Positions 34,032 through 47,805 of a stretch of DNA of 60,924 nucleotides are shown here, one piece after another; position 1 is the stretch's first letter, and each line of letters begins with the position of its first letter. A model generated the notes under the pieces. The model was not told the DNA's origin and did no database searches. It was given only the letters and a program-made list of their open reading frames with translations. A program made the translations under genes and the position numbers. This DNA comes from Candidatus Woesearchaeota archaeon (GTDB lineage Archaea; Nanobdellota; Nanobdellia; Pacearchaeales; GW2011-AR1), in NCBI GenBank assembly GCA_964437555.1, contig CAYTHI010000004.1, positions 1 to 60,924 of the forward strand, read 5' to 3'.

Positions 34032-34280
34032 TTACTGCTCGTCTTTGTGATAAATCTTAAGGAAAATCAATCGATTTTCAGCAGGCAGGAAGGCATAAGC
34101 CAGCCTGTAAGATCCTGCATAAACCTCTCTTGACCCCTTTCTCTCAAACTTCATTGGCTTACCTATCTCTGGGTTTTCAATTATCTTTTTCACCAACTTT
34201 ATAATTTGCTCCTTAAAGGAGGCATCTTTAATCTTATTGAGAAATCTTTCGAATTTATCATCGTAAAATACCTCTACCAT
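34032..34280 (-). CDS. RelE/ParE-superfamily type II toxin
   Basis: 82 aa. The C-terminal YRLAYAFLPAENRLIFLKIYHKDEQ resembles the RelE/ParE YR..Y.......I.I..I.HR motif. Overlaps the upstream small gene by 7 nt. Confidence 0.7.
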   Translation of the reverse strand: MVEVFYDDKFERFLNKIKDASFKEQIIKLVKKIIENPEIGKPMKFERKGSREVYAGSYRLAYAFLPAENRLIFLKIYHKDEQ

Positions 34281-34468
34281 TTATCCAGTTCTTTGAGAAA
34301 TTTTTCCTTTGGGAGAGATTTAAACTCGCCTTTATCGTATCTTTCCCAAGACTCTGCTACTTGGCGAGCGAACTCGAGATCTTCTATATACTTATCCATA
34401 TTTTGCATTTTTGCCTTTAATTCCAGCAAGACTTTGTAAATTTCTTCGTTTGATATTTGGTTTTGCAT
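34274..34468 (-). CDS. Putative antitoxin partner of the RelE-like toxin
   Basis: 64-aa acidic helical ORF immediately upstream of and overlapping the toxin gene. Assignment is by position only. Confidence 0.55.
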   Translation of the reverse strand: MQNQISNEEIYKVLLELKAKMQNMDKYIEDLEFARQVAESWERYDKGEFKSLPKEKFLKELDKW

Positions 34469-34737
34469 TGAGTATCGTCGTTATTCTGATTAATAAACCT
34501 TTCTTTTGATGCCAAGCGCGTTCGGCGCTTCGCGCCTCACTTATTAATTAAAGATATATTTTTCTGCTTAATCCTGGTTTAAACAGGTGTTTGCCTTTCC
34601 CGTTTTTTGCTTTTCTCTGCTGAATTTTTCCCGTTAATTTGCCGACGATAAAGGGCGTTTGTTGAGTGTTTTCTTCATAATTAAATCGTGTGCTGGACTT
34701 GCATTAGTTTTTAGCGATTTTTTCGCACTTTGGATGG

Positions 34738-34922
34738 CTGTTTAAGCCTGTTTGTCTCTGTTTATCGCTGTTCAAACAGCTGTTTGTTTTTGGTTGGGGG
34801 GTGTTTAAGGGCTGTTTGTACCTGTTTAAGATTTCAAACAGGGGTGTTTTTTCTTACTTTGCTGAATTGCCTTTATAGGCCTTTAAAGCATAAAGTTTAT
34901 ATATTATGGCTGTTTTAAACAG
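34738..34922. repeat. Iteron-like array of CTGTTT / GTGTTT / AAACAG half-sites, phased at 10-12 bp
   Basis: Half-sites start at 34738, 34748, 34758, 34768, 34774(rev), 34780, 34801, 34812, 34822, 34836(rev), 34844, 34910 and 34917(rev). Includes the palindrome AAACAGCTGTTT at 34774-34785. Further copies lie at 34581-34592 and inside the downstream CDS (35054-35253). Confidence 0.8.
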
Positions 34923-34924
34923 GC

Positions 34925-35569
34925 ATGTTTTTTGGCTTATTTAGGAACAAGAGGGTGAAAAAGCTTGAAGATGAAACTAAGAAAGGTTTTCAAGCTGTCA
35001 AAGGCGATTTTGATAAGGTAGGCAAGTGGATTAAACACCTTGATGAGAAAGACAAACAGCTGTTTGATACTCTTGAACAACTAAAAATTGATTTATCGTC
35101 AATGAAAGATGAAATTTCCGGGCTTCGGGAAGCTGTTGACTTGATTTCTGAAACACCAAAAATTAAACAGGCATCTAAAAAAACAGCTGTTTATAACAAA
35201 CAGGGGGGTGTTTATGGTGTTGAAAAAGCTGTTCAAACAGCTGTTCAAACAGGTAATTTCTATGAAATTCTGCAGGGATTATCAAGCAATGAAAGGCTCC
35301 TGATTTATACCCTTGCAAATAGCGAGCTAAAGCTAAGTTATGAGGATTTGGCTAGGCTTTTAGGGAAAGAGAGATCTACAGTTAGGGGACAGATTAATAC
35401 TATAAAACAGAAAAGTGATGGGTTATTGATGGAATTAACTGAACCTTCTGGTAAAAAAAGGGTGTTTGTGAGTGATGAAATCAAGGAAAAACTGCTAAAA
35501 TACGCAAAAGTGAGGGTTAAATCATCAAAAAAATCGCTGAAAAAGGTGAAAAAGATAGAAGCAGAGTGA
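34925..35569 (+). CDS. Coiled-coil plus low-complexity linker plus C-terminal winged-helix (MarR-like) DNA-binding protein
   Basis: 214 aa. N-terminal heptad-like helix (KGFQAVKGDFDKVGKWIKHLDEKDKQLFDTLEQLK), linker KTAVYNKQGGVYGVEKAVQTAVQTG, and wHTH-like LIYTLANSELKLSYEDLARLLGKERSTVRGQINTIKQK. Confidence 0.55.
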   Translation: MFFGLFRNKRVKKLEDETKKGFQAVKGDFDKVGKWIKHLDEKDKQLFDTLEQLKIDLSSMKDEISGLREAVDLISETPKIKQASKKTAVYNKQGGVYGVEKAVQTAVQTGNFYEILQGLSSNERLLIYTLANSELKLSYEDLARLLGKERSTVRGQINTIKQKSDGLLMELTEPSGKKRVFVSDEIKEKLLKYAKVRVKSSKKSLKKVKKIEAE

Positions 35570-35808
35570 TGAAAAGACAAAAAATGAGAAAAAGAGAGCT
35601 CGAATGAACTTGAAAAATTTTTAGTTGAAGTAAAAGTGAGGAAAAATTGGAAAAGCGAGAACAATTTTTCTGATGGGCCAGAAAGAAGTTAATTAAAACG
35701 AACTTTAAATGTTAGAAATATTCGTTTAATAAGATTTCTTTGAAATCTTGAAAGGTTTTTGAGATTTAATTAGTTGTGAGTATTTATTCGGTTAGCGAGA
35801 TAACTCTA

Positions 35809-36513
35809 TTAAAGCTCTCTTAACTGGAGAATCGTGTTTAGTGAGGCGATTTTCTTGAGATCTTCTGGTATTGACAAGATAACTTTCTTGTTGTCTTCTT
35901 TGAGCTTATCGACGGGAATGCCTTTATTTGTTATTTTTCTTACGTAATCCCGAATAGAGATTTCTGATAGGCCAAGCTTTTCAGATAATAATGCATAATC
36001 AACGACAAACCCTTGTTCTTGAAGCTGATAAATTGTTGAAAATATCAGCATTTCCTTATTGGAAAGCTTCTTGAATTTAATGCGAATTTCTTTCTTAAGC
36101 TCGTCAAGGGAATTAAGGATTTCTGATGCCCTTCGGATACGGGAGATTCTATCTTCTTTCTCTTCTGTTTGATGTGCGTTATAAGTATTTAATGCGAACT
36201 TTACACTGGAAGTGGTGGGGTGTTGGTTGGTTTGTTGGTTTGTTGGTTGGTTTGTTGGAACCCCTTCATTTCCTGTGGAAATAATTAAGTTTGGGCTTTT
36301 TAAGGCGTATAAATGCCTTTTATCTGTTGAGGTTTGTGTTGGGGTGTTGGAATTATTTGTTGGTTGGTTTGTTGGATATACCTGATGTGTTGGGGTTTTA
36401 AGGGAATCTTTTAGCTCATTTAGTTCTTTTCTTACTTCTAATACCTCGCTGATTAGATTATCTATATCTTCTTTTACTTTTGAGAAGGCCTCTTTGATTT
36501 TATCGTCCTGCAT
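35809..36513 (-). CDS. Coiled-coil plus PTNQ-repeat linker plus C-terminal winged-helix DNA-binding protein
   Basis: 234 aa. N-terminal KEAFSKVKEDIDNLISEVLEVRKELNELK, a low-complexity PTNQPTN... linker, and wHTH-like MLIFSTIYQLQEQGFVVDYALLSEKLGLSEISIRDYVRKITNKGI. Same architecture as 34925-35569. Confidence 0.55.
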   Translation of the reverse strand: MQDDKIKEAFSKVKEDIDNLISEVLEVRKELNELKDSLKTPTHQVYPTNQPTNNSNTPTQTSTDKRHLYALKSPNLIISTGNEGVPTNQPTNQQTNQHPTTSSVKFALNTYNAHQTEEKEDRISRIRRASEILNSLDELKKEIRIKFKKLSNKEMLIFSTIYQLQEQGFVVDYALLSEKLGLSEISIRDYVRKITNKGIPVDKLKEDNKKVILSIPEDLKKIASLNTILQLREL

Positions 36514-36576: not shown

Positions 36577-36837
36577 ATGGTCTCTTTAAAAGATTATCTT
36601 GGAGAGGAAGGTCTTGCAAATCCTGATAGAGTTCTCGCCTTTTGCAGTTTATGGTATGAAAAATTAGATGAAACTATGGGGTCTGCGGATAGACAGGATT
36701 TCTTATTTAGACAGCGAGATTTATGGCTTTTTGCGAATAAAGGAAAAGCAGAAAAGCTTTTGCAGAAGGTAACTTTATATTGGGCAGCATATTCTGAACA
36801 TAGCCCGATAATTAGAGGTATGCGGGGAGAAATATAG
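36577..36837 (+). CDS. Hypothetical protein (86 aa)
   Basis: ORF divergent from 35809-36513. No motif recognised. Confidence 0.3.
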   Translation: MVSLKDYLGEEGLANPDRVLAFCSLWYEKLDETMGSADRQDFLFRQRDLWLFANKGKAEKLLQKVTLYWAAYSEHSPIIRGMRGEI

Positions 36838-36845
36838 GCTCTTAA

Positions 36846-37124
36846 TTATTTGGACTGGCTTCTTTTGAACACTTCAAAAGCCTCGGAGGAAAGGCGCCAG
36901 CGCTGCCTTCTTGTATAATCTTCGCCTTGGGGGTTTTTGTTAATTTCGGCTATTAAAGACTTTGATTTTAAGTCTATAAGTAATGATTTAATGAACTCCT
37001 CGTCTCTTGCTATTGATTCTGCTATTTTATTCGTAAACGCTGATTGCGGGGATATTTCAAACAAATAATGCAGGATTTGCTCCTGGATTTTGTCTTTCTT
37101 CTTTTGCGAGATGCTTGGCATCAT
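36846..37124 (-). CDS. Small winged-helix-like DNA-binding protein
   Basis: 92 aa. IQEQILHYLFEISPQSAFTNKIAESIARDEEFIKSLLIDLKSKSLI looks like a wHTH (H1-H2-H3-wing) of the kind common in archaeal plasmids and viruses. Assignment by pattern only. Confidence 0.4.
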   Translation of the reverse strand: MMPSISQKKKDKIQEQILHYLFEISPQSAFTNKIAESIARDEEFIKSLLIDLKSKSLIAEINKNPQGEDYTRRQRWRLSSEAFEVFKRSQSK

Positions 37125-37912: not shown

Positions 37913-38218
37913 ATGAAGGACAAATTAACAACTATCAGGATTTCGTCTGAAGTTGATGGCGAAATAGAAAAGCTGGCAAGGATAGAAGATACTGAAAAGT
38001 CCAAGCTTATAAGGGAGCTGATAATTCTTGGGATGAAAGAAAAGAAGCTTGAAGAGGCGCTGAAACTTTATGAAGAAAGAAAAATATCTTTATGGAAAGC
38101 TGCGCGCTTCGCGGGCATTTCTTTATGGAGAATGATGGAAATTGCAGGAAAGAGAAAAGTAGTTCTCCAATATGGGCTGAAAGAATTGAAAGAAGATTTG
38201 AAGGCGCTGGAGGAATAA
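37913..38218 (+). CDS. UPF0175-family HTH antitoxin-like protein
   Basis: KLYEERKISLWKAARFAGISLWRMMEIAGKRKV is the typical UPF0175 core. Sits directly upstream of a DUF3368/PIN gene, a pairing I recall as recurrent. Confidence 0.7.
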   Translation: MKDKLTTIRISSEVDGEIEKLARIEDTEKSKLIRELIILGMKEKKLEEALKLYEERKISLWKAARFAGISLWRMMEIAGKRKVVLQYGLKELKEDLKALEE

Positions 38219-38219
38219 T

Positions 38220-38726
38220 TTGATAGTCTCAAATGCGAGCCCTTTGATATACTTAGCTAAAATCAATAAATTAGAGCTATTAAAAAAGTTGTTTGGAAAG
38301 ATTTTTATCCCGCCTGAAGTTTATCAAGAGGCTGTTGTAAGGGGAAGAGAAGAAAAGTTTTTGGATGCAATTAGGATAGAAAAAGCAATTAAAGATGGCT
38401 GGATAGAAGTAAACAAGACAGAAAAGCTGGCAGAAGAAATAAAAGTATTTGCTGATGAAATTGACGCAGGCGAGCTGGAAACAATTGGCTTAGCAAGAAA
38501 GCTAAAAGCTTCTTTAGTTTTGAGCGACGATGCTCCTGCAAGAGCGATTGCCGAGAGCTTTGGGCTTAATTCCAAGGGAACGATTTATGTTTTACTAAGG
38601 GCTTATAAGGAAAAAATGCTCCCTAAAAAAAATGTTAAAGAGCTGGTAAATGAGCTTTCGTCTTTGGGCTTTAGAATCTCGCAGGAGGTTTATATTGAAT
38701 TTTTAGAGAAATTGGAGAAGGGTTAG
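38220..38726 (+). CDS. PIN-like nuclease domain protein (DUF3368 family), putative toxin
   Basis: The N-terminus SNASPLIYLAKINKLELLKKLFGKIFIPPEVYQE is characteristic of DUF3368. TTG start 2 nt after the upstream stop. 168 aa. Confidence 0.7.
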   Translation: MIVSNASPLIYLAKINKLELLKKLFGKIFIPPEVYQEAVVRGREEKFLDAIRIEKAIKDGWIEVNKTEKLAEEIKVFADEIDAGELETIGLARKLKASLVLSDDAPARAIAESFGLNSKGTIYVLLRAYKEKMLPKKNVKELVNELSSLGFRISQEVYIEFLEKLEKG

Positions 38727-40027: not shown

Positions 40028-42631
40028 ATGGCAAAGAAAATAGGCAACCTTGAGTATATTGAAGCGAATACAGAGAAAGAAGTAATTGAAACCCTTCATC
40101 CGCTTGTCGCAGAATGGTTTTTTAATAAGTTTGAAAAATTGAGCCTGACGCAGCTTTATGGAGTTAAGAGGATTTCAGACAGGAAAAATATACTTATTTC
40201 AGCTCCTACCGGAGGAACTAAGACGCTTACTGCTTTCCTTGGCATTCTTAATTATCTTGTCGGGCTTAGCTTAAAAGACGAACTGGAAGAGAAGATTTAT
40301 TGTGTTTATTCTTCTCCCTTGAAGGCGCTTTCTAATGACATTTTTGTGAATCTTGTTAATCCTTTGAAAGAAATAAATGAATTAGCGGACAAGAAAGGCA
40401 TGAAGATGCAGGAAATAAGAGTTGGATTGCGAACAGGAGATACAACTGTCAGCGAGAGGGTTAAGATGGCTCGCAATATTCCGCATATTCTTGTCACAAC
40501 GCCTGAAAGCTTGAGTATTGTTCTTACTTCGCCTAAATTTGTTGAAAACCTGCGGGCTGTTGAGTTTGTTATTGTTGATGAGATACATGCAATGGCAAAT
40601 AAAAGAGGCGTTTATCTGTCTTTGTCTTTGGAAAGATTAAAAGAAGAGAGCTTGATTGAGCCTGTTCGCATTGGCTTGAGCGCTACTGTTGCGCCTCTTG
40701 AAGAGGTCGCAAGGTTTCTTGTTGGTTATGAAGATGGAAAGGAAAGAGAATGTTTGATTGCACAAGTGCCTTTAGTTAAAGAAGTTGAAATAAAGCTTAT
40801 TACGCCTGCGGAAGATATTTTAGAAGCTGAAAATCCTGAAAATCAGAAGAAATTGTATAAGATTTTAGATGAATTGATTGACGAGCATAAAACAACTTTG
40901 ATTTTTACTAATACAAGAGCGGCTACAGAAAGAGTTGTGCATCATCTTGATTTACATTTTCCTGAAAAATATACTGATTTGATTGGAGCGCATCATTCTT
41001 CCATGAGCAAGGAAAAGAGATTTGAGATTGAAGACAAATTGCGTAAGGGTGAATTGAAAGTGGTTGTTTCTTCTACTTCTCTGGAATTGGGAATTGATAT
41101 TGGAAGTGTTGATTTAGTTGTTCTGCTTCGCTCTCCTAAAAGTGTTGCTCGAGCTTTGCAGAGGATTGGAAGGGCAGGGCATATGCTGCATGCAAACCCT
41201 AAAGGAAGATTTGTTGTTTTAGACAGAGATGATTTAGTTGAATGCGGGGTTTTGATGAAAAATATGATTGAGAAGAAGATTGATGAAGTTAGCATTCCAA
41301 GCAATGCTTTAGATGTATTGGCACAGCAGATTTATGGAATGGCAATTTCAAAGATTTGGAAAGCTGAAAACATGTTAAAAGCTATAAGGAGAAGTTATTG
41401 TTATCACAATTTAAAGAAAGAGGATTTTTATGATGTTATTAGTTATTTGGCGGGAGATTATGCTTTAGAGCACAGGAATGTATATGCAAAAATATGGTAT
41501 GATGCTTCTTCAGGAGAAATAGGAAAGAAAGGCAAGCTTGCCCGCGTGATATACATGACAAATATAGGAACAATTCCTGAAGAGGGTTTTATTAATGTTG
41601 AAATTAATTCTCCAAAGGAAAGAAAGGGGCAAAATGTCGGCAAGATTGATGAGGGATTTTTAGAGAGGCTGAAGAGAGGAGATATTTTCGTATTGGGCGG
41701 CCAGAAATACCAGTTTTTATTTACAAGAGGAATGAAAGCGTATGTTATGGCGGGAATTTCCAGGTCGCCTACCGTGCCTTCCTGGTTTTCGGAAATGCTG
41801 CCTTTGAGTTTTGATGTTGCATTGGATATCGCGCGTTTTCGCGGCTTGGTTAAAGAAAGAATGAAGAATAAGGCAGAGTGTGTTGCCTTCATTAAAAGCT
41901 ATTTGTATGTTGATTCTTTGGCTGCGGAAAATATTTATAAGTATTTCGGGGAGCAGGAAAAGTTTTCAGAGATTCCTGATAATTTTAATTTAATTATAGA
42001 AAAATTTAAGCATGATAAAGAGTATTTGTTGTTTCATAGTTTATATGGCCGAAGAGTGAATGATGCGCTTGCCAGAGCTTATGCATATGCGGCTGCTAAT
42101 TTGAGAATGAGAGATATTGAAATGGGAATTAATGATAATGGATTTTTTATTGCCGGCGAAAGCCTGGATGAAAATAAAATATTAAAAGCAATTACTTCCA
42201 GCAATTTGGAAAGCTTATTGAAAGAAGCGATTGAAAAGACAGATGTTTTGAAGAGGCGCTTTAGGCATTGCGCTTCCCGCGGGCTTATGATTCTTAGAAG
42301 CTACAAAGGCAGGACAAAGAGTGTTGGAAAGCAGCAATTGCATTCTCATTTTCTTTTTGCCGCTGTTAAGAAATTATCTGATGAGTTTCCTATTCTTCGC
42401 GAGGCGCGCCGCGAGGTTTTAGAAGATGTTATGGATATTGAGCATGCTAAAGAGATTTTGAAGTGGATTGAATCCGGACGAATTAAAATTAAAGTATTGA
42501 GAACGCCGATGATTTCGCCCTTCGGGCTTAATTTGTATGTGCAGGGACATGCTGATTTCATAAAGATTGAAGATAAACTTAAGTTTCTGAAGAGGATGCA
42601 TGAGTTGCATCTAAAAATCATCGGAGAATGA
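40028..42631 (+). CDS. lhr: Lhr-type (Lhr-core) superfamily-2 DExH helicase
   Basis: Walker A SAPTGGTKT, DExH VDEIH, motif III SAT, motif VI QRIGRAGH. About 400 aa C-terminal extension of the type found in Lhr-core (DEAD-associated domain). 867 aa. Confidence 0.85.
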   Translation: MAKKIGNLEYIEANTEKEVIETLHPLVAEWFFNKFEKLSLTQLYGVKRISDRKNILISAPTGGTKTLTAFLGILNYLVGLSLKDELEEKIYCVYSSPLKALSNDIFVNLVNPLKEINELADKKGMKMQEIRVGLRTGDTTVSERVKMARNIPHILVTTPESLSIVLTSPKFVENLRAVEFVIVDEIHAMANKRGVYLSLSLERLKEESLIEPVRIGLSATVAPLEEVARFLVGYEDGKERECLIAQVPLVKEVEIKLITPAEDILEAENPENQKKLYKILDELIDEHKTTLIFTNTRAATERVVHHLDLHFPEKYTDLIGAHHSSMSKEKRFEIEDKLRKGELKVVVSSTSLELGIDIGSVDLVVLLRSPKSVARALQRIGRAGHMLHANPKGRFVVLDRDDLVECGVLMKNMIEKKIDEVSIPSNALDVLAQQIYGMAISKIWKAENMLKAIRRSYCYHNLKKEDFYDVISYLAGDYALEHRNVYAKIWYDASSGEIGKKGKLARVIYMTNIGTIPEEGFINVEINSPKERKGQNVGKIDEGFLERLKRGDIFVLGGQKYQFLFTRGMKAYVMAGISRSPTVPSWFSEMLPLSFDVALDIARFRGLVKERMKNKAECVAFIKSYLYVDSLAAENIYKYFGEQEKFSEIPDNFNLIIEKFKHDKEYLLFHSLYGRRVNDALARAYAYAAANLRMRDIEMGINDNGFFIAGESLDENKILKAITSSNLESLLKEAIEKTDVLKRRFRHCASRGLMILRSYKGRTKSVGKQQLHSHFLFAAVKKLSDEFPILREARREVLEDVMDIEHAKEILKWIESGRIKIKVLRTPMISPFGLNLYVQGHADFIKIEDKLKFLKRMHELHLKIIGE

Positions 42632-46199: not shown

Positions 46200-46560
46200 T
46201 GAGAGATTGAAACAAGTCAATTCAAAAGGAAGAGAACCCCTCCCCCCTTCATTTCCTGTGGAAAAAAGAGAAGGGTTTATAAATAAATTGTATTTTTTAT
46301 TTTTTTCATTTTTCTTTTTAAATTTATATATTTTATAATATATATAATGTAATAAATAGATTTTAAATAGAAAACTTATATATCATGAATGAAAAACGAA
46401 AGAGAAGTGCTTGTTTTTAGAGTTTCATCGGAAATGAAGGTGTGAGTCTTGTTTTTACTTTAAAATTACTCTTTAAAGTACGCCGACGATAATTTCTTTT
46501 TTTGTTATTCTTTCCATAAGAAATACAGGTTGAAGTAGCGATAACTTTATAATCAATAGG
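46200..46560. other. Candidate chromosomal replication origin (oriC): inverted ORB elements flanking an AT-rich DUE
   Basis: ORB1 46235-46264 reads TTTCCACAGGAAATGAAGGGGGGAGGGG on the minus strand: a dyad TTTCC-N3-GGAAA plus a G-string. ORB2 46424-46447 (TTTCATCGGAAATGAAGGTGTG) is in inverted orientation. Between them is a stretch of over 100 bp that is almost pure A/T (about 46277-46380). Directly upstream of orc1/cdc6. Confidence 0.7.
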
Positions 46561-46596: not shown

Positions 46597-47805
46597 ATGT
46601 CTCAGAAAATTGACAAAATTTTTGATTCTTTTATCAGAAATAATTTATTTAAGAGCAAAGCAGTCCTGCAGATAAATTACACTCCTGAAATTATTGCACA
46701 CAGGGACGAGCAGACAAGCGCTGTTGCTTCTGTACTCGCCCCCGCGCTGAGAAACGAAAGGATAAGCAACCTTTTTGTTTACGGAAAAACAGGCACAGGC
46801 AAAACCCTGAGTGTTCAATATGTGGGAAATGAAATATTAAAGAGGGCAAAAGATAGGGGCGAGGATTTTGTTAATGTCATTTATGTCAATTGCAAGCTAA
46901 AGAAAGTAGCAGATACAGAATATAGAATTCTTGCTGAAATCATTAATCGCCTTGGCGGAAATGTCCCTTCAACAGGCCTGCCCACAGACGTAGTTTATAA
47001 TAAATTTGTTTCTTTAATTGATAATAAAAGACAAATAGTTATTTTGATATTGGATGAAATTGACCAGGCAGTAAAAAAGATTTCTGATAATTTTCTTTAT
47101 ACTCTTACAAGACTGAATTCTGATTTGAAAAATGCGCAAATAGGGATTATAGGCATAAGCAACAGCTTAACATTTATGGATAATTTAGATCCAAGAGTGA
47201 GAAGCTCTCTCGGCGAAGAGGAATTGGTTTTTTCTCCCTACAATGCTTTGCAATTGCAGGATATTCTGAAACAGAGGGCAGACCAGGCTTTTGTTGAGGG
47301 AGTTTTAGAAGAAGGAGTTATTGCCAAGTGTGCGGCTTACGCCGCAAGGGAGCACGGAGATGCCAGAAGAGCTTTAGATTTATTAAGAGTGGCGGGCGAG
47401 CTCGCGGAAAGGGAAGGCAGTAAAAGAGTGAGTCTTACTCATATAGATGCCGCAAACAACAAAATTGAGAGGGATAAAATGCTGGACATCATTCAGAATG
47501 AGCCGAGGCAATTTCAGCTTGTTTTAAATGCTATTATAGACCTTACAGAGGATAAAAAGTTTGACAGAATTTTTACAGGAAATATTTATAATAAATACCA
47601 GGAAGTATGCACAAAAACAAAAAACGAAATTCTTACACAGAGGAGAGTTTCTGATATAATCGCAGAGTTTGACATGCTTGGCATAATCAATGCAGATGTT
47701 ATCAGCAAGGGAAGGCAGGGGAGAACAAGAGTAATAAAGCTGATGCTGACGGAAGGCCTGAGGGAAAAAGCAAGAGAGATACTTAATGAAAGCCTGAATT
47801 TATAA
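46597..47805 (+). CDS. cdc6: Orc1/Cdc6 replication initiator
   Basis: Walker A YGKTGTGKT, Walker B ILDEID, sensor and C-terminal winged-helix regions. 402 aa. Confidence 0.92.
   Translation: MSQKIDKIFDSFIRNNLFKSKAVLQINYTPEIIAHRDEQTSAVASVLAPALRNERISNLFVYGKTGTGKTLSVQYVGNEILKRAKDRGEDFVNVIYVNCKLKKVADTEYRILAEIINRLGGNVPSTGLPTDVVYNKFVSLIDNKRQIVILILDEIDQAVKKISDNFLYTLTRLNSDLKNAQIGIIGISNSLTFMDNLDPRVRSSLGEEELVFSPYNALQLQDILKQRADQAFVEGVLEEGVIAKCAAYAAREHGDARRALDLLRVAGELAEREGSKRVSLTHIDAANNKIERDKMLDIIQNEPRQFQLVLNAIIDLTEDKKFDRIFTGNIYNKYQEVCTKTKNEILTQRRVSDIIAEFDMLGIINADVISKGRQGRTRVIKLMLTEGLREKAREILNESLNL

Follow-up and report, generated by a model that had tools for sequence, protein, structure and literature searches.

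What are the short repeats for that crowd the promoter of a small archaeal gene and then run on into its coding sequence? The question is raised by a stretch of 60,924 nucleotides (contig CAYTHI010000004.1 of assembly GCA_964437555.1, Candidatus Woesearchaeota archaeon, order Pacearchaeales), referred to here as the window, in which a preliminary description had pointed to a helically phased, iteron-like array of CTGTTT and AAACAG hexamers that precedes and enters a gene for a 214-amino-acid (214-aa) winged-helix protein. Judging from the comparison of homologous loci, this is a genuine array of sequence-specific sites that is conserved, phased and tied to the winged-helix gene. Our preferred reading, to which we give a probability of roughly 0.55, is that the 214-aa protein would itself bind the half-sites and assemble a complex over its own promoter and gene, with autoregulation as the outcome. 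The parts of the locus on which this argument leans are the following, with positions counted in the window:

34581 to 34592, no strand assigned: AAACAGGTGTTT, a palindromic outlier of the motif that lies distally, at -344 relative to the ATG.
34738 to 34849, forward strand: upstream array of ten half-sites, eight direct (G[C/G]TGTT[T/C]) and two inverted, one per helical turn.
34896 to 34905, forward strand: TATA box TTTATATATT of the 214-aa gene.
34910 to 34922, no strand assigned: CTGTTT-T-AAACAG, an everted pair that follows the TATA box and ends 2 nt short of the ATG at 34925.
34925 to 35569, forward strand: the 214-aa gene, coding for an N-terminal helical hairpin or coiled coil, a linker and a C-terminal winged helix.
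35033 to 35065, no strand assigned: intragenic cluster 1, with AAACAC (codons 37-38) and the palindrome AAACAGCTGTTT (codons 44-47, DKQLF).
35151 to 35252, no strand assigned: intragenic cluster 2, with 12 half-sites in the linker-coding codons 76-110.

Within the window, the array is set apart from its surroundings by number and by spacing. The hexamer CTGTTT and its complement AAACAG occur 73 times, and 19 of these 73 copies fall within the 680 bp from 34574 to 35253; the rest of the window holds about 0.6 per 680 bp, which is about 30 times below the array. When the half-site is written as [CG]TGTT[TC] plus its complement, 29 copies are counted across 34581-35252, where a count by hand had given about 26. 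The 12-bp palindrome AAACAGCTGTTT has its sole three window copies at 34774 (inside the upstream array), 35054 and 35181, exactly as had been reported. Additionally, clusters of at least three half-sites are found three times, always at the array, against 0.08 expected from 100 Markov shuffles, and elsewhere in the 61 kb there are zero same-orientation pairs of half-sites at 10-12 or 20-22 bp. Upstream of the gene, CTGTTT starts at 34738, 34748, 34758, 34780, 34812 and 34822, and the variants CTGTTC and GTGTTT start at 34768 and at 34801 and 34844, respectively; consecutive direct copies are 10, 10, 10, 12, 21, 11, 10 and 22 bp apart and take up 106 bp over 10 helical turns. All coordinates of the preliminary description proved correct when checked in the sequence, and its proposal that the copies, spaced by 10-12 bp or multiples of it, share one face of the helix is supported both by these intervals and by the period seen across genomes (see below). 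A 62-aa open reading frame (ORF) that spans the array (34730-34918) is not a gene but a by-product of the CTGTTT repeats.

The window was compared with 80 homologous loci from Pacearchaeota-type genomes, and the counts that follow refer to these 81 loci unless another set is named. The absence of repeats from homologous loci had been named beforehand as a reason to abandon the array; with the loci anchored on a conserved residue, the array is kept in all 81, upstream as well as inside the gene. Every locus has at least three upstream sites (-320 to -40, median 8) and at least five intragenic ones (median 9), and the consensus half-site is G[G/C]TGTTT[A/G], the most enriched upstream 6-mers being GGTGTT, GTGTTT and CTGTTT. 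Distances between copies in the same orientation peak at 10-12, 21, 32-33, 43, 53 and 64 bp, with an upstream period of about 10.6 bp. The density of the motif per 100 bp is about 0.1 in the flanks; it takes the values 0.46, 2.0 and 0.96 between -300 and 0 (three bins, with the peak at -200 to -100) and 1.7, 2.9, 1.7 and 0.74 between +100 and +500 (four bins, with the peak at +200 to +300). The motif occurs in both orientations and as palindromes, with a bias towards TGTTT upstream and towards AAACA inside the gene. About 20 of the 80 homologous loci have a further cluster, which contains AAACAG[GC]TGTTT palindromes, at 450-1500 bp upstream; a small, divergently oriented gene for a membrane protein (DUF5654, MscL-like or others) separates it from the array, and its equivalent in the window is the AAACAGGTGTTT copy at 34581.

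These data also bear on the simplest explanation of the repeats, a compositional or slippage artefact, that is, a low-complexity tandem repeat without function. Short tandem units with 10-nt and 12-nt periods are indeed present in the array, as such an origin would suggest. However, the motif is not similarly frequent elsewhere in the 61-kb window, as the 30-fold lower background and the shuffles demonstrate, and its positions, orientation and rare codons are conserved over 81 species-level loci in which many other synonymous sites are near background. We consider the artefact excluded by the conservation data.

A TTTAWAWA element begins -26 to -30 from the ATG in 76 of the 81 loci, so the mRNA of the 214-aa gene is probably leaderless and the upstream array would lie outside the transcript. 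At least one site is found between the TATA box and the ATG in 30 loci, and at least two in 14. As the upstream copies would be outside the mRNA, and as copies occur in both orientations and as palindromes, recognition of double-stranded DNA rather than of RNA is indicated. This is of importance for the proposal that the intragenic copies act in the mRNA, be it as structure, as protein sites or as a device of translational autoregulation. For instance, GCUGUUCAAACAGC is able to form a 5-bp hairpin, and the same gene has signals at the RNA level farther 3′ (strand-specific AAAGUGAG copies and a covarying hairpin, see below). By contrast, phased arrays of the same motif lie upstream of the TATA box, what is conserved in the copies is the sequence and not the pairing, and a scan of 34300-35700 against Rfam, the downstream hairpin included, gave no relevant match. 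An RNA-level element is, in our view, improbable.

Inside the gene, the two clusters lie at +105 to +140 and +226 to +328 from the start. That the array runs on into linker-coding DNA, as the preliminary description had it, is confirmed by the 12 half-sites of cluster 2, which ends in two 12-nt tandem copies of GCTGTTCAAACA coding for VQTAVQT (GCTGTTCAAACAGCTGTTCAAACAGG, at 35228-35253, codes for AVQTAVQTG). The invariant residues of the family, D43-K44-Q45 and V103-Q-T-x-V-Q-T-x-N111, are those that the intragenic copies encode, and their codons are equally constrained. K44 is AAA in 100% of the loci; CAG, whose share in the background is 32%, encodes Q45 in all 75 loci that have Gln there and Q82 in 76 of 77; H38 is CAC in 94% (37% in the background), and L46 is CTG in 60 of the 66 loci with Leu (91%, against 5%), its replacement being Val GTG. 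Q104 and Q108, on the other hand, are CAA (in 79 of 80 and 81 of 81 loci) because AAACAG lies there in another frame (CAA ACA G); T105 and T109 are ACA in 91-100%, and codon 106 is invariably NCT or NGT. Synonymous constraint reaches 3.6 bits of Kullback-Leibler divergence, in discrete patches only, and most codons of the winged-helix core (123-160) are near background. Read from codon usage, the intragenic copies are under selection at the nucleotide level and not under protein-level constraint alone. Since the sites occupy linker-coding DNA, the linker peptide (DKQLF, KQ, VQTxVQT) would be largely a read-out of the DNA sites, and it appears to be largely their product rather than a selected protein motif.

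In the wider family, the repeats and the encoded protein change together. Homologues that are 20-50% identical and have the helix ST.RGQIN.IK.K keep VQT/KQT units (GTTCAAACA), in variable number and position. A distant subgroup of 17 proteins has instead the helix VTIRRHIND..R, so that the recognition helices to be contrasted are STVRGQINTIKQK in the 214 family and VTIRRHINDxxR in the subgroup. The nine loci of this subgroup that were retrieved are essentially without TGTTT sites and carry, at +230 to +340, 4-8 copies of GTTCAATCG/CGATTGAAC, including a 20-bp palindrome. The GTTCAATCG array has a period of 8-10 nt, with the consequence that RSI, VQS and FNR all arise from a single unit read in three frames, and it makes use of the rare codons CGT/CGC and TCG. 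Repeats whose periods are not multiples of three, and which switch with the helix, point to the DNA as the selected object and to the encoded protein as its reader, for which GCTGTTTAA is the candidate site in the case of the 214-aa winged helix. Genes for tyrosine recombinases (phage-integrase family) were observed near two of the nine loci (L081, 550-1377, and L089, 1-572, L numbers being our labels for loci), and some members of the wider family may sit on integrated elements.

The predicted structure of the 214-aa protein identifies its C-terminal domain as a winged helix of the DNA-binding Lrs14/MarR/ArsR type. In the AlphaFold2 model, two long N-terminal helices (residues 7-74) are followed by a disordered, low-confidence linker (residues 75-104) and by the winged helix (about 112-199), with a predicted local distance difference test score (pLDDT) of 76-90 over residues 110-190. 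Foldseek matched this domain with Lrs14/AbfR2, MarR and ArsR/SmtB winged helices at E = 1e-4, the best structural matches being 6cmv (AbfR2), MepR and MexR (E about 1e-4). In a sequence search of the PDB, an Lrs14-like protein was a weak match (E = 0.04) among coiled-coil noise. Scans of Pfam, PHROGs, NCBIfam and PADLOC gave helix-turn-helix (HTH) matches below the curated cut-offs and no known family or defence system; the protein did not reach the gathering score for membership in the Pfam MarR/HTH families, and no Rep, ATPase, helicase, primase or ParB domain was detected in it with the curated libraries.

The family is narrow, with 285 clusters at 50% identity among 1.84 billion representatives, and it is present in at least 227 species-representative genomes. 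There are 2242 homologues at E <= 0.001, some of them on contigs as large as 885 kb; identity is 60-78% for the closest 120, and the named ones among these all belong to metagenome-assembled genomes of Pacearchaeota, 'Woesearchaeota' or Nanoarchaeota. A metagenome scan for phased TGTTT triplets found the gene at 3 of the 120 matches listed, the rest being mostly unrelated tandem repeats. We found no description of the family or the array in the literature, which does not prove that none exists.

In the mechanism that we favour, the 214-aa protein would bind the repeats as double-stranded DNA with its winged-helix domain, the half-site being the 7-bp G[C/G]TGTTT, and it would oligomerise through its N-terminal helical hairpin or coiled coil. 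A flexible linker of about 30 residues would allow each winged helix to reach direct, inverted or everted half-sites. Binding would be cooperative at 8-10 sites on one helix face, over about 110 bp that end 20-45 bp upstream of the transcription factor B recognition element (BRE) and the TATA box, with an additional pair of sites over the transcription start in some lineages; in the window, the everted pair at 34910-34922 sits over the presumed start and is a candidate for a repressing operator. The upstream array and both intragenic clusters could in this way be joined in one nucleoprotein complex, either wrapped or looped, that covers the promoter and the gene's first half. This complex would set the level of the 214-aa protein by promoter occlusion, looping and/or a roadblock to elongation, and it would probably also control the small divergent membrane-protein gene of many loci. 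Following a dual logic that is drawn from general knowledge of archaeal regulators, the sites upstream of BRE and TATA box could activate transcription at low occupancy, and the start and intragenic sites could repress it at high occupancy by occlusion, looping or roadblock.

Farther 3′, the same gene carries the signals at the RNA level that were mentioned above:

35506 to 35520, forward strand: AAAGTGAG motif at the 3′ coding end (GCA AAA GTG AGG GTT = AKVRV).
35636 to 35673 (whole element 35626-35683), forward strand: conserved RNA hairpin downstream of the 214-aa gene, with a 10-bp helix.

The AAAGTGAG motif has about four copies per locus between +400 and +900 and is confined to one strand, AAGTGAG being found 317 times in the forward and 0 times in the reverse orientation. 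Two copies lie in the 3′ coding part, where the rare codons GTG (V196) and AGT (S164) are fixed, V196 being GTG in 100% of the loci against 11% in the background, and the next copy in the window is at about 35633-35640, in the 3′ intergenic region. The last copy forms the 5′ flank of the hairpin, whose flanks are invariant (AA-R-UGA-GG and C-UGA) and bear a kink-turn (K-turn)-like or box-C/D-like signature. In alignment A2, which comprises 41 loci with candidates chosen by motif and best folding energy, 94.4% of the cells are paired and 8 of the 10 pairs have compensatory double changes; double-changed cells number 50 against 9.1 in shuffles, and the observed score was met by 0 of 500 shuffles. 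A K-turn combines a canonical helix with a 3-nt bulge and tandem sheared G.A pairs, in a structure to which L7Ae binds. The covarying helix and the UGA...CUGA flanks fit such a motif, and an outer canonical stem is not evident in the window copy. A new covarying structured RNA beside the 214-aa gene is a by-product of this analysis.

The 214-aa protein is not the only DNA-binding protein that the locus may encode, as two further genes follow it:

35809 to 36513, reverse strand: convergent 234-aa paralogue, with the same architecture as the 214-aa protein (coiled coil, repeat-bearing linker, winged helix).
36220 to 36258, reverse strand: tandem repeats of 12 nt, CCAACAAACCAA, in the part of the 234-aa gene that codes for the linker, with a second copy at 36356-36375.
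36261 to 36280, reverse strand: origin recognition box (ORB) TTCCACAGGAAATGAAGGGG inside the 234-aa gene, an exact 20/20 copy of the ORB at 46244-46263 in the chromosomal origin (oriC).
36846 to 37124, reverse strand: small winged-helix protein of 92 aa, the third member of a conserved triad.

The winged helices of the 214-aa and 234-aa proteins are homologous (hhalign probability 90.5%, E = 1.4e-6), and the 92-aa protein has weak winged-helix matches in Pfam. The linker DNA of the 234-aa gene is nearly invariant at synonymous positions (GGG GTT CCA ACA RAC etc.). There are two types of 12-nt repeat in this family, CCAACAAACCAA, coding for PTNQ, and CAGACAGACAGA, coding for TDRQ, and the Asn/Asp codons at the first repeat position are essentially xAC (AAC 29, GAC 43, GAT 1). 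The type of repeat tracks the start of the recognition helix: where this is Ile, the repeat is of the CCAACAAAC type in 20 of 20 cases, and where it is not (Ser), the repeat is ACAGAC in 45 of 48. The association spans 6-10 apparent transitions in neighbour-joining trees of either gene, which are noisy, and both characters are linked within one gene. In the distant subgroup, the helices of the partner proteins differ, and their genes carry repeats of still other sequence (CCTTACAAC, ATCAATCATC, TTCATTCA, ATCAACAAT, TGTTGTTATG).

The array could, then, be read by the 234-aa paralogue, the 92-aa protein or an unlinked regulator, in which case the 214-aa gene would be the target and not the reader. 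Two additional winged-helix genes adjoin it in nearly all loci (the 234-aa gene in 80 of 81, the 92-aa gene in 75 of 81), and cross-regulation within a convergent pair is plausible. By contrast, the type of repeat shifts with the recognition helix of the 214-type protein, the 234-type genes have different repeats of their own that track their own helix, and in the 81 loci neither the 234-aa and 92-aa genes nor the DNA upstream of them show an enrichment of TGTTT sites. We regard another binder as rather unlikely.

Where in the genome the locus lies is informative about the iteron idea of the preliminary description. The gene order is rpL13-rpS9, a Xer-like integrase, a GAN/RecJ-like DHH protein, variable small genes and the triad, followed by an Lhr helicase, a metallophosphoesterase, a PRC protein, cdc6 and the genes for the polD subunits DP1 and DP2. 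The same order is found in all four long sequences (the window and three contigs of 362-674 kb), and in all four the locus is 6-11 kb from the cdc6 origin (about 11 kb in the window). The origin itself comprises the following elements:

46237 to 46264, 46424 to 46446 and 46511 to 46535: ORBs of oriC.
About 46288 to 46370: DNA unwinding element (DUE), near-pure A/T.

These ORBs were missed by a generic repeat finder and were recognised by comparison with three other genomes. In four genomes (the window, L210, L212 and L213), the spacer upstream of cdc6 (46597-47805 in the window, with PolD DP1 and DP2 after it) has canonical archaeal origin architecture, with inverted TCCA-N2-GGAAA boxes and G-strings around a near-pure A/T stretch. 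In fact, archaeal origins are known for inverted ORBs that flank an AT-rich DUE beside the initiator gene (PMC4010727). The GC skew of the window climbs monotonically and follows the gene strand.

Two of the earlier suggestions are not supported. A plasmid or viral island is at variance with a family found in at least 227 species genomes, with the fixed chromosomal synteny and with the absence of relatives from viral and plasmid collections (IMG/VR, PLSDB). Autonomous replication from the array is at variance with the lack of an AT-rich unwinding element at the locus (minimum GC 0.25 per 100 bp over 33.8-37.4 kb) and with the presence of a canonical ORB/DUE origin 11 kb away, upstream of cdc6. 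ORB-like matches around the array (-400 to +700) were only two in the 81 loci, and, as it has neither ORB nor DUE, the TGTTT array is not a canonical origin. In a narrower version of the idea, the winged-helix protein would be the initiator of a secondary origin, or of a plasmid or virus replicon that has become integrated, and the repeats would be its iterons. Some points are in its favour: a combination of direct repeats with an inverted one, placed at a winged-helix gene's promoter, recalls iteron plasmids; archaeal origins consist of paired replicator and initiator, for which a descent from captured elements has been proposed (PMC4010727); the nearest ORB is at a distance of 1.3 kb; and integrase genes accompany the two distant-subgroup loci named above. 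However, base composition at the locus is far from the near-pure A/T of the oriC DUE, the ORB is neither in nor next to the TGTTT array, the 214-aa protein lacks the domains expected of an initiator (ATPase, helicase, primase, Rep), and the synteny is stable. We take this version to be very improbable.

The ORB inside the 234-aa gene deserves attention of its own. TTCCACAGGAAATGAAGGGG has two matches in the window against 0.02 expected, and it encodes STGNEGV, the conserved S-T-G-N-x-G-V motif of the 234 family, in which the box positions TCCA, GAA and GGGGTT are invariant in 73-75 of 75 loci. Five ORB-like matches were found in 563 kb of flanking DNA. In three loci of 20 kb, such matches are confined to the 234-type gene (two per gene, on opposite strands), oriC and one position in Lhr; some genomes have a second, inverted copy 60-85 bp away in the 234-type gene, and the distant partner genes (L083-L088) keep the ORB. 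We also observed further intragenic ORB-like boxes with G-strings (TCCAAAGGAAAGAAAGGGG, TCCACAGGAAGCACAGGGGGGG) at 41611 (forward strand, Lhr helicase) and 50252 (forward strand, PolD DP2), as well as ORB-like matches at positions consistent with Lhr in L004, L059 and L213. Intragenic ORB clusters bound by Cdc6/Orc1 are known from Pyrococcus dp1 (PMC1904270).

It is at this point that autoregulation by the 214-aa protein has to be weighed against a possible, though clearly less probable, role as a centromere-like or chromosome-organising site. In that case the array, probably bound by the 214-aa protein, would nucleate an origin-proximal hub for segregation, origin positioning or replication control, with the 234-aa protein, the 92-aa protein and, through the intragenic ORB, Orc1/Cdc6 as partners, and autoregulation would be a side effect; among known systems, ParR/parC, TubR/tubC and ParB/parS would come nearest to it. 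A single cluster without sign of a regulon in 61 kb, its fixed place near the cdc6-polD origin in all four long contigs, a triad of winged-helix genes with three repeat families (TGTTT, AAAGTGAG and CCAACAAAC/ACAGAC), a canonical ORB that the partner gene keeps in all loci, extra arrays that bracket the variable small genes, and a protein and a repeat that diversify jointly between lineages, as in partition and incompatibility systems, are all consistent with it. On the other side, the triad holds no NTPase of ParA, SegA, ParM or TubZ type (its conserved neighbours being two winged-helix genes), the ParA-type Walker A motif KGGxGK[ST] does not occur in the window, and proximity to the origin may merely mirror the conserved gene order of one order-level clade. 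Additionally, intragenic ORBs near oriC are known without a link to segregation, as in Pyrococcus dp1 (PMC1904270). In its most complete form, which we put forward with the same reserve, the locus would be an origin-proximal chromosome hub, centromere-like or devoted to replication control, of the Pacearchaeales, with three winged-helix proteins that each have a private repeat family hard-wired in their own gene: the 214-aa protein would read TGTTT, the 234-aa protein would read the lineage-specific 10-12-nt linker repeats beside an Orc1/Cdc6 box, and the strand-specific AAAGTGAG repeats with the K-turn-like RNA would be the third element.

Several observations weigh against autoregulation by the 214-aa protein as the whole answer. 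Eight of the nine distant-subgroup loci have an intragenic array without an upstream one (L084 has three upstream GTTCAATCG copies, at -80, -70 and -60), and an array that is universal only inside the gene is not demanded by a simple promoter-operator model. No regulon was seen in the 61 kb, and it would be odd for a very widely conserved protein to regulate only itself; the place of the locus close to the origin, together with the ORB of the partner gene, suggests some additional role. The universality of the intragenic copies, the lack of a visible regulon, the position near the origin, the repeats of the paralogue and the ORB fit a centromere-like or replication-control hub about as well. 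The reader may instead be one of the two neighbours, of 234 aa and 92 aa, or an unlinked factor, and the N-terminal domain, through which the 214-aa protein would oligomerise, has a pLDDT of about 50. The 214-family recognition helix is nearly invariant, with S/A151 as its one variable position, and S/A151 does not covary with the C/G flavour of the half-site within the family. Finally, the covariation in the 234 family could be one between proteins, with the linker peptide matched to the winged helix; noise in the trees, or the linkage of both characters in a single gene, could also have inflated it.

Phased repeat arrays that are read by an adjacent small DNA-binding protein are of an already known kind. 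In ParR/parC of plasmid R1 and TubR/tubC of pBtoxis, the array is both centromere and autoregulatory operator, and TubR is a winged-helix protein. The 214-aa locus resembles them in that about ten short direct repeats, one per helical turn, lie at the promoter of a small DNA-binding protein's gene, the putative reader of the sites. It differs from them in having no linked ParM, TubZ or ParA motor gene, in being chromosomal and present in many genomes of a lineage, and in an array that enters the reader's own coding sequence, and no sequence relationship was detected. In iteron Rep systems (RepA of pPS10, RepE of F, RepA of P1), monomers read the direct repeats and dimers read an inverted repeat at the promoter, which results in autorepression. 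Direct repeats, an inverted repeat at the promoter of the putative reader and winged-helix domains in that reader are shared with the present locus; unlike them, it has 7-bp half-sites at about 10.6 bp instead of iterons of 17-22 bp, no DUE and no Rep-family domain, it belongs to neither plasmid nor virus, and its origin is elsewhere.

Small archaeal DNA-binding proteins of the Lrs14/AbfR, MarR and Ss-LrpB types have several sites at their own promoters and regulate themselves. The first two are the best structural match of the 214-aa C-terminal domain, a likeness at the level of the fold only (about 20% identity), to which the 214-aa family adds the N-terminal coiled coil and the long linker. 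About 17-29 sites per locus, their phasing and their intragenic placement set the locus apart from the Lrs14, MarR and Ss-LrpB types, and we found no described counterpart in the literature. With respect to chromosome segregation, ParB has an N-terminal CTPase domain plus an HTH, and a parS site can lie inside the spo0J/parB gene. SegB recognises palindromic centromere-like sites upstream of segA (PMC11381335). Sites in or next to the binder's own gene and near the origin are a feature shared with both systems, but here there is neither ParB/SegB homology nor a ParA/SegA partner, and many 7-bp half-sites in arrays replace the one or two 16-bp palindromes of ParB/parS. The ORB in the 234-aa gene is comparable to the boxes with a TTCC...GAA core that are conserved across the order in the coding sequence of Pyrococcus dp1, near oriC (PMC1904270). 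The TGTTT motif, unlike those Orc1 boxes of a polymerase gene, is not an ORB and is apparently read by the product of its own gene.

What would be new is, first, an array embedded in the linker-coding DNA of its own reader, with the peptide as a by-product of the sites; second, a helix and a repeat that diversify together across family and paralogue; and third, the link to a conserved intragenic ORB beside the oriC of an uncultivated archaeal order. The locus may be a very clean natural case of dual coding, in which linkers (DKQLF and VQTxVQT, or RSI/VQS/FNR in the sister clade) are apparently fixed by DNA sites. Repeat periods of 8, 10 and 12 nt, and one repeat in three frames, bear on how 'invariant' peptide motifs and synonymous constraint are read. 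If the hub were real, protein linkers dictated by DNA would be a general design principle of the family. Moreover, a 7-bp half-site and its predicted reader make a directly testable pair, for which the natural switch of specificity in the distant subgroup is the control. To our knowledge, almost no regulatory or chromosome-biology element has been described in these DPANN archaea, and we know of no segregation system in this archaeal group; the fixed proximity to the origin and the ORB in the partner gene may open a route to origin-proximal organisation, segregation and initiation control in Pacearchaeota.

Some minor observations concern the surroundings of these genes. In the AT-rich spacer from the antitoxin-like gene to the array there is a GC-rich imperfect hairpin, GCCAAGCGCGTTCGGCGCTTCGCGCCTCAC, at 34511-34540. 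A minor second motif, TTATCGTCG/TCGTCGA, occurs at 34473, 34643 and 35093; in some loci it is found at -200 to +200 and +1000 to +1200, it is also enriched in the 234-type gene, and it coincides with the rare fixed codons TCG TCG of Ser58-Ser59 in the 214 family (7% in the background). The heptamer TATTCGG (CCGAATA) is present at 35785 and 37152, with 32 copies over the 81 loci near the 3′ end of the 234-type gene (+800 to +1000) and others upstream of the 92-aa gene. In the window, an inserted 86-aa ORF (36577-36837, forward strand) with no family match separates the 234-aa gene from the 92-aa gene, whereas in most other loci (e.g., L001) the two adjoin. On either side of the triad lies a toxin-antitoxin module, a ParE toxin preceded by a small ORF and a UPF0175/ribbon-helix-helix (RHH) antitoxin with a PIN/DUF3368 toxin, at 34032-34468 (reverse strand) and 37913-38726 (forward strand). 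The immediate flanks of the triad differ between genomes, and the wider gene order is conserved.

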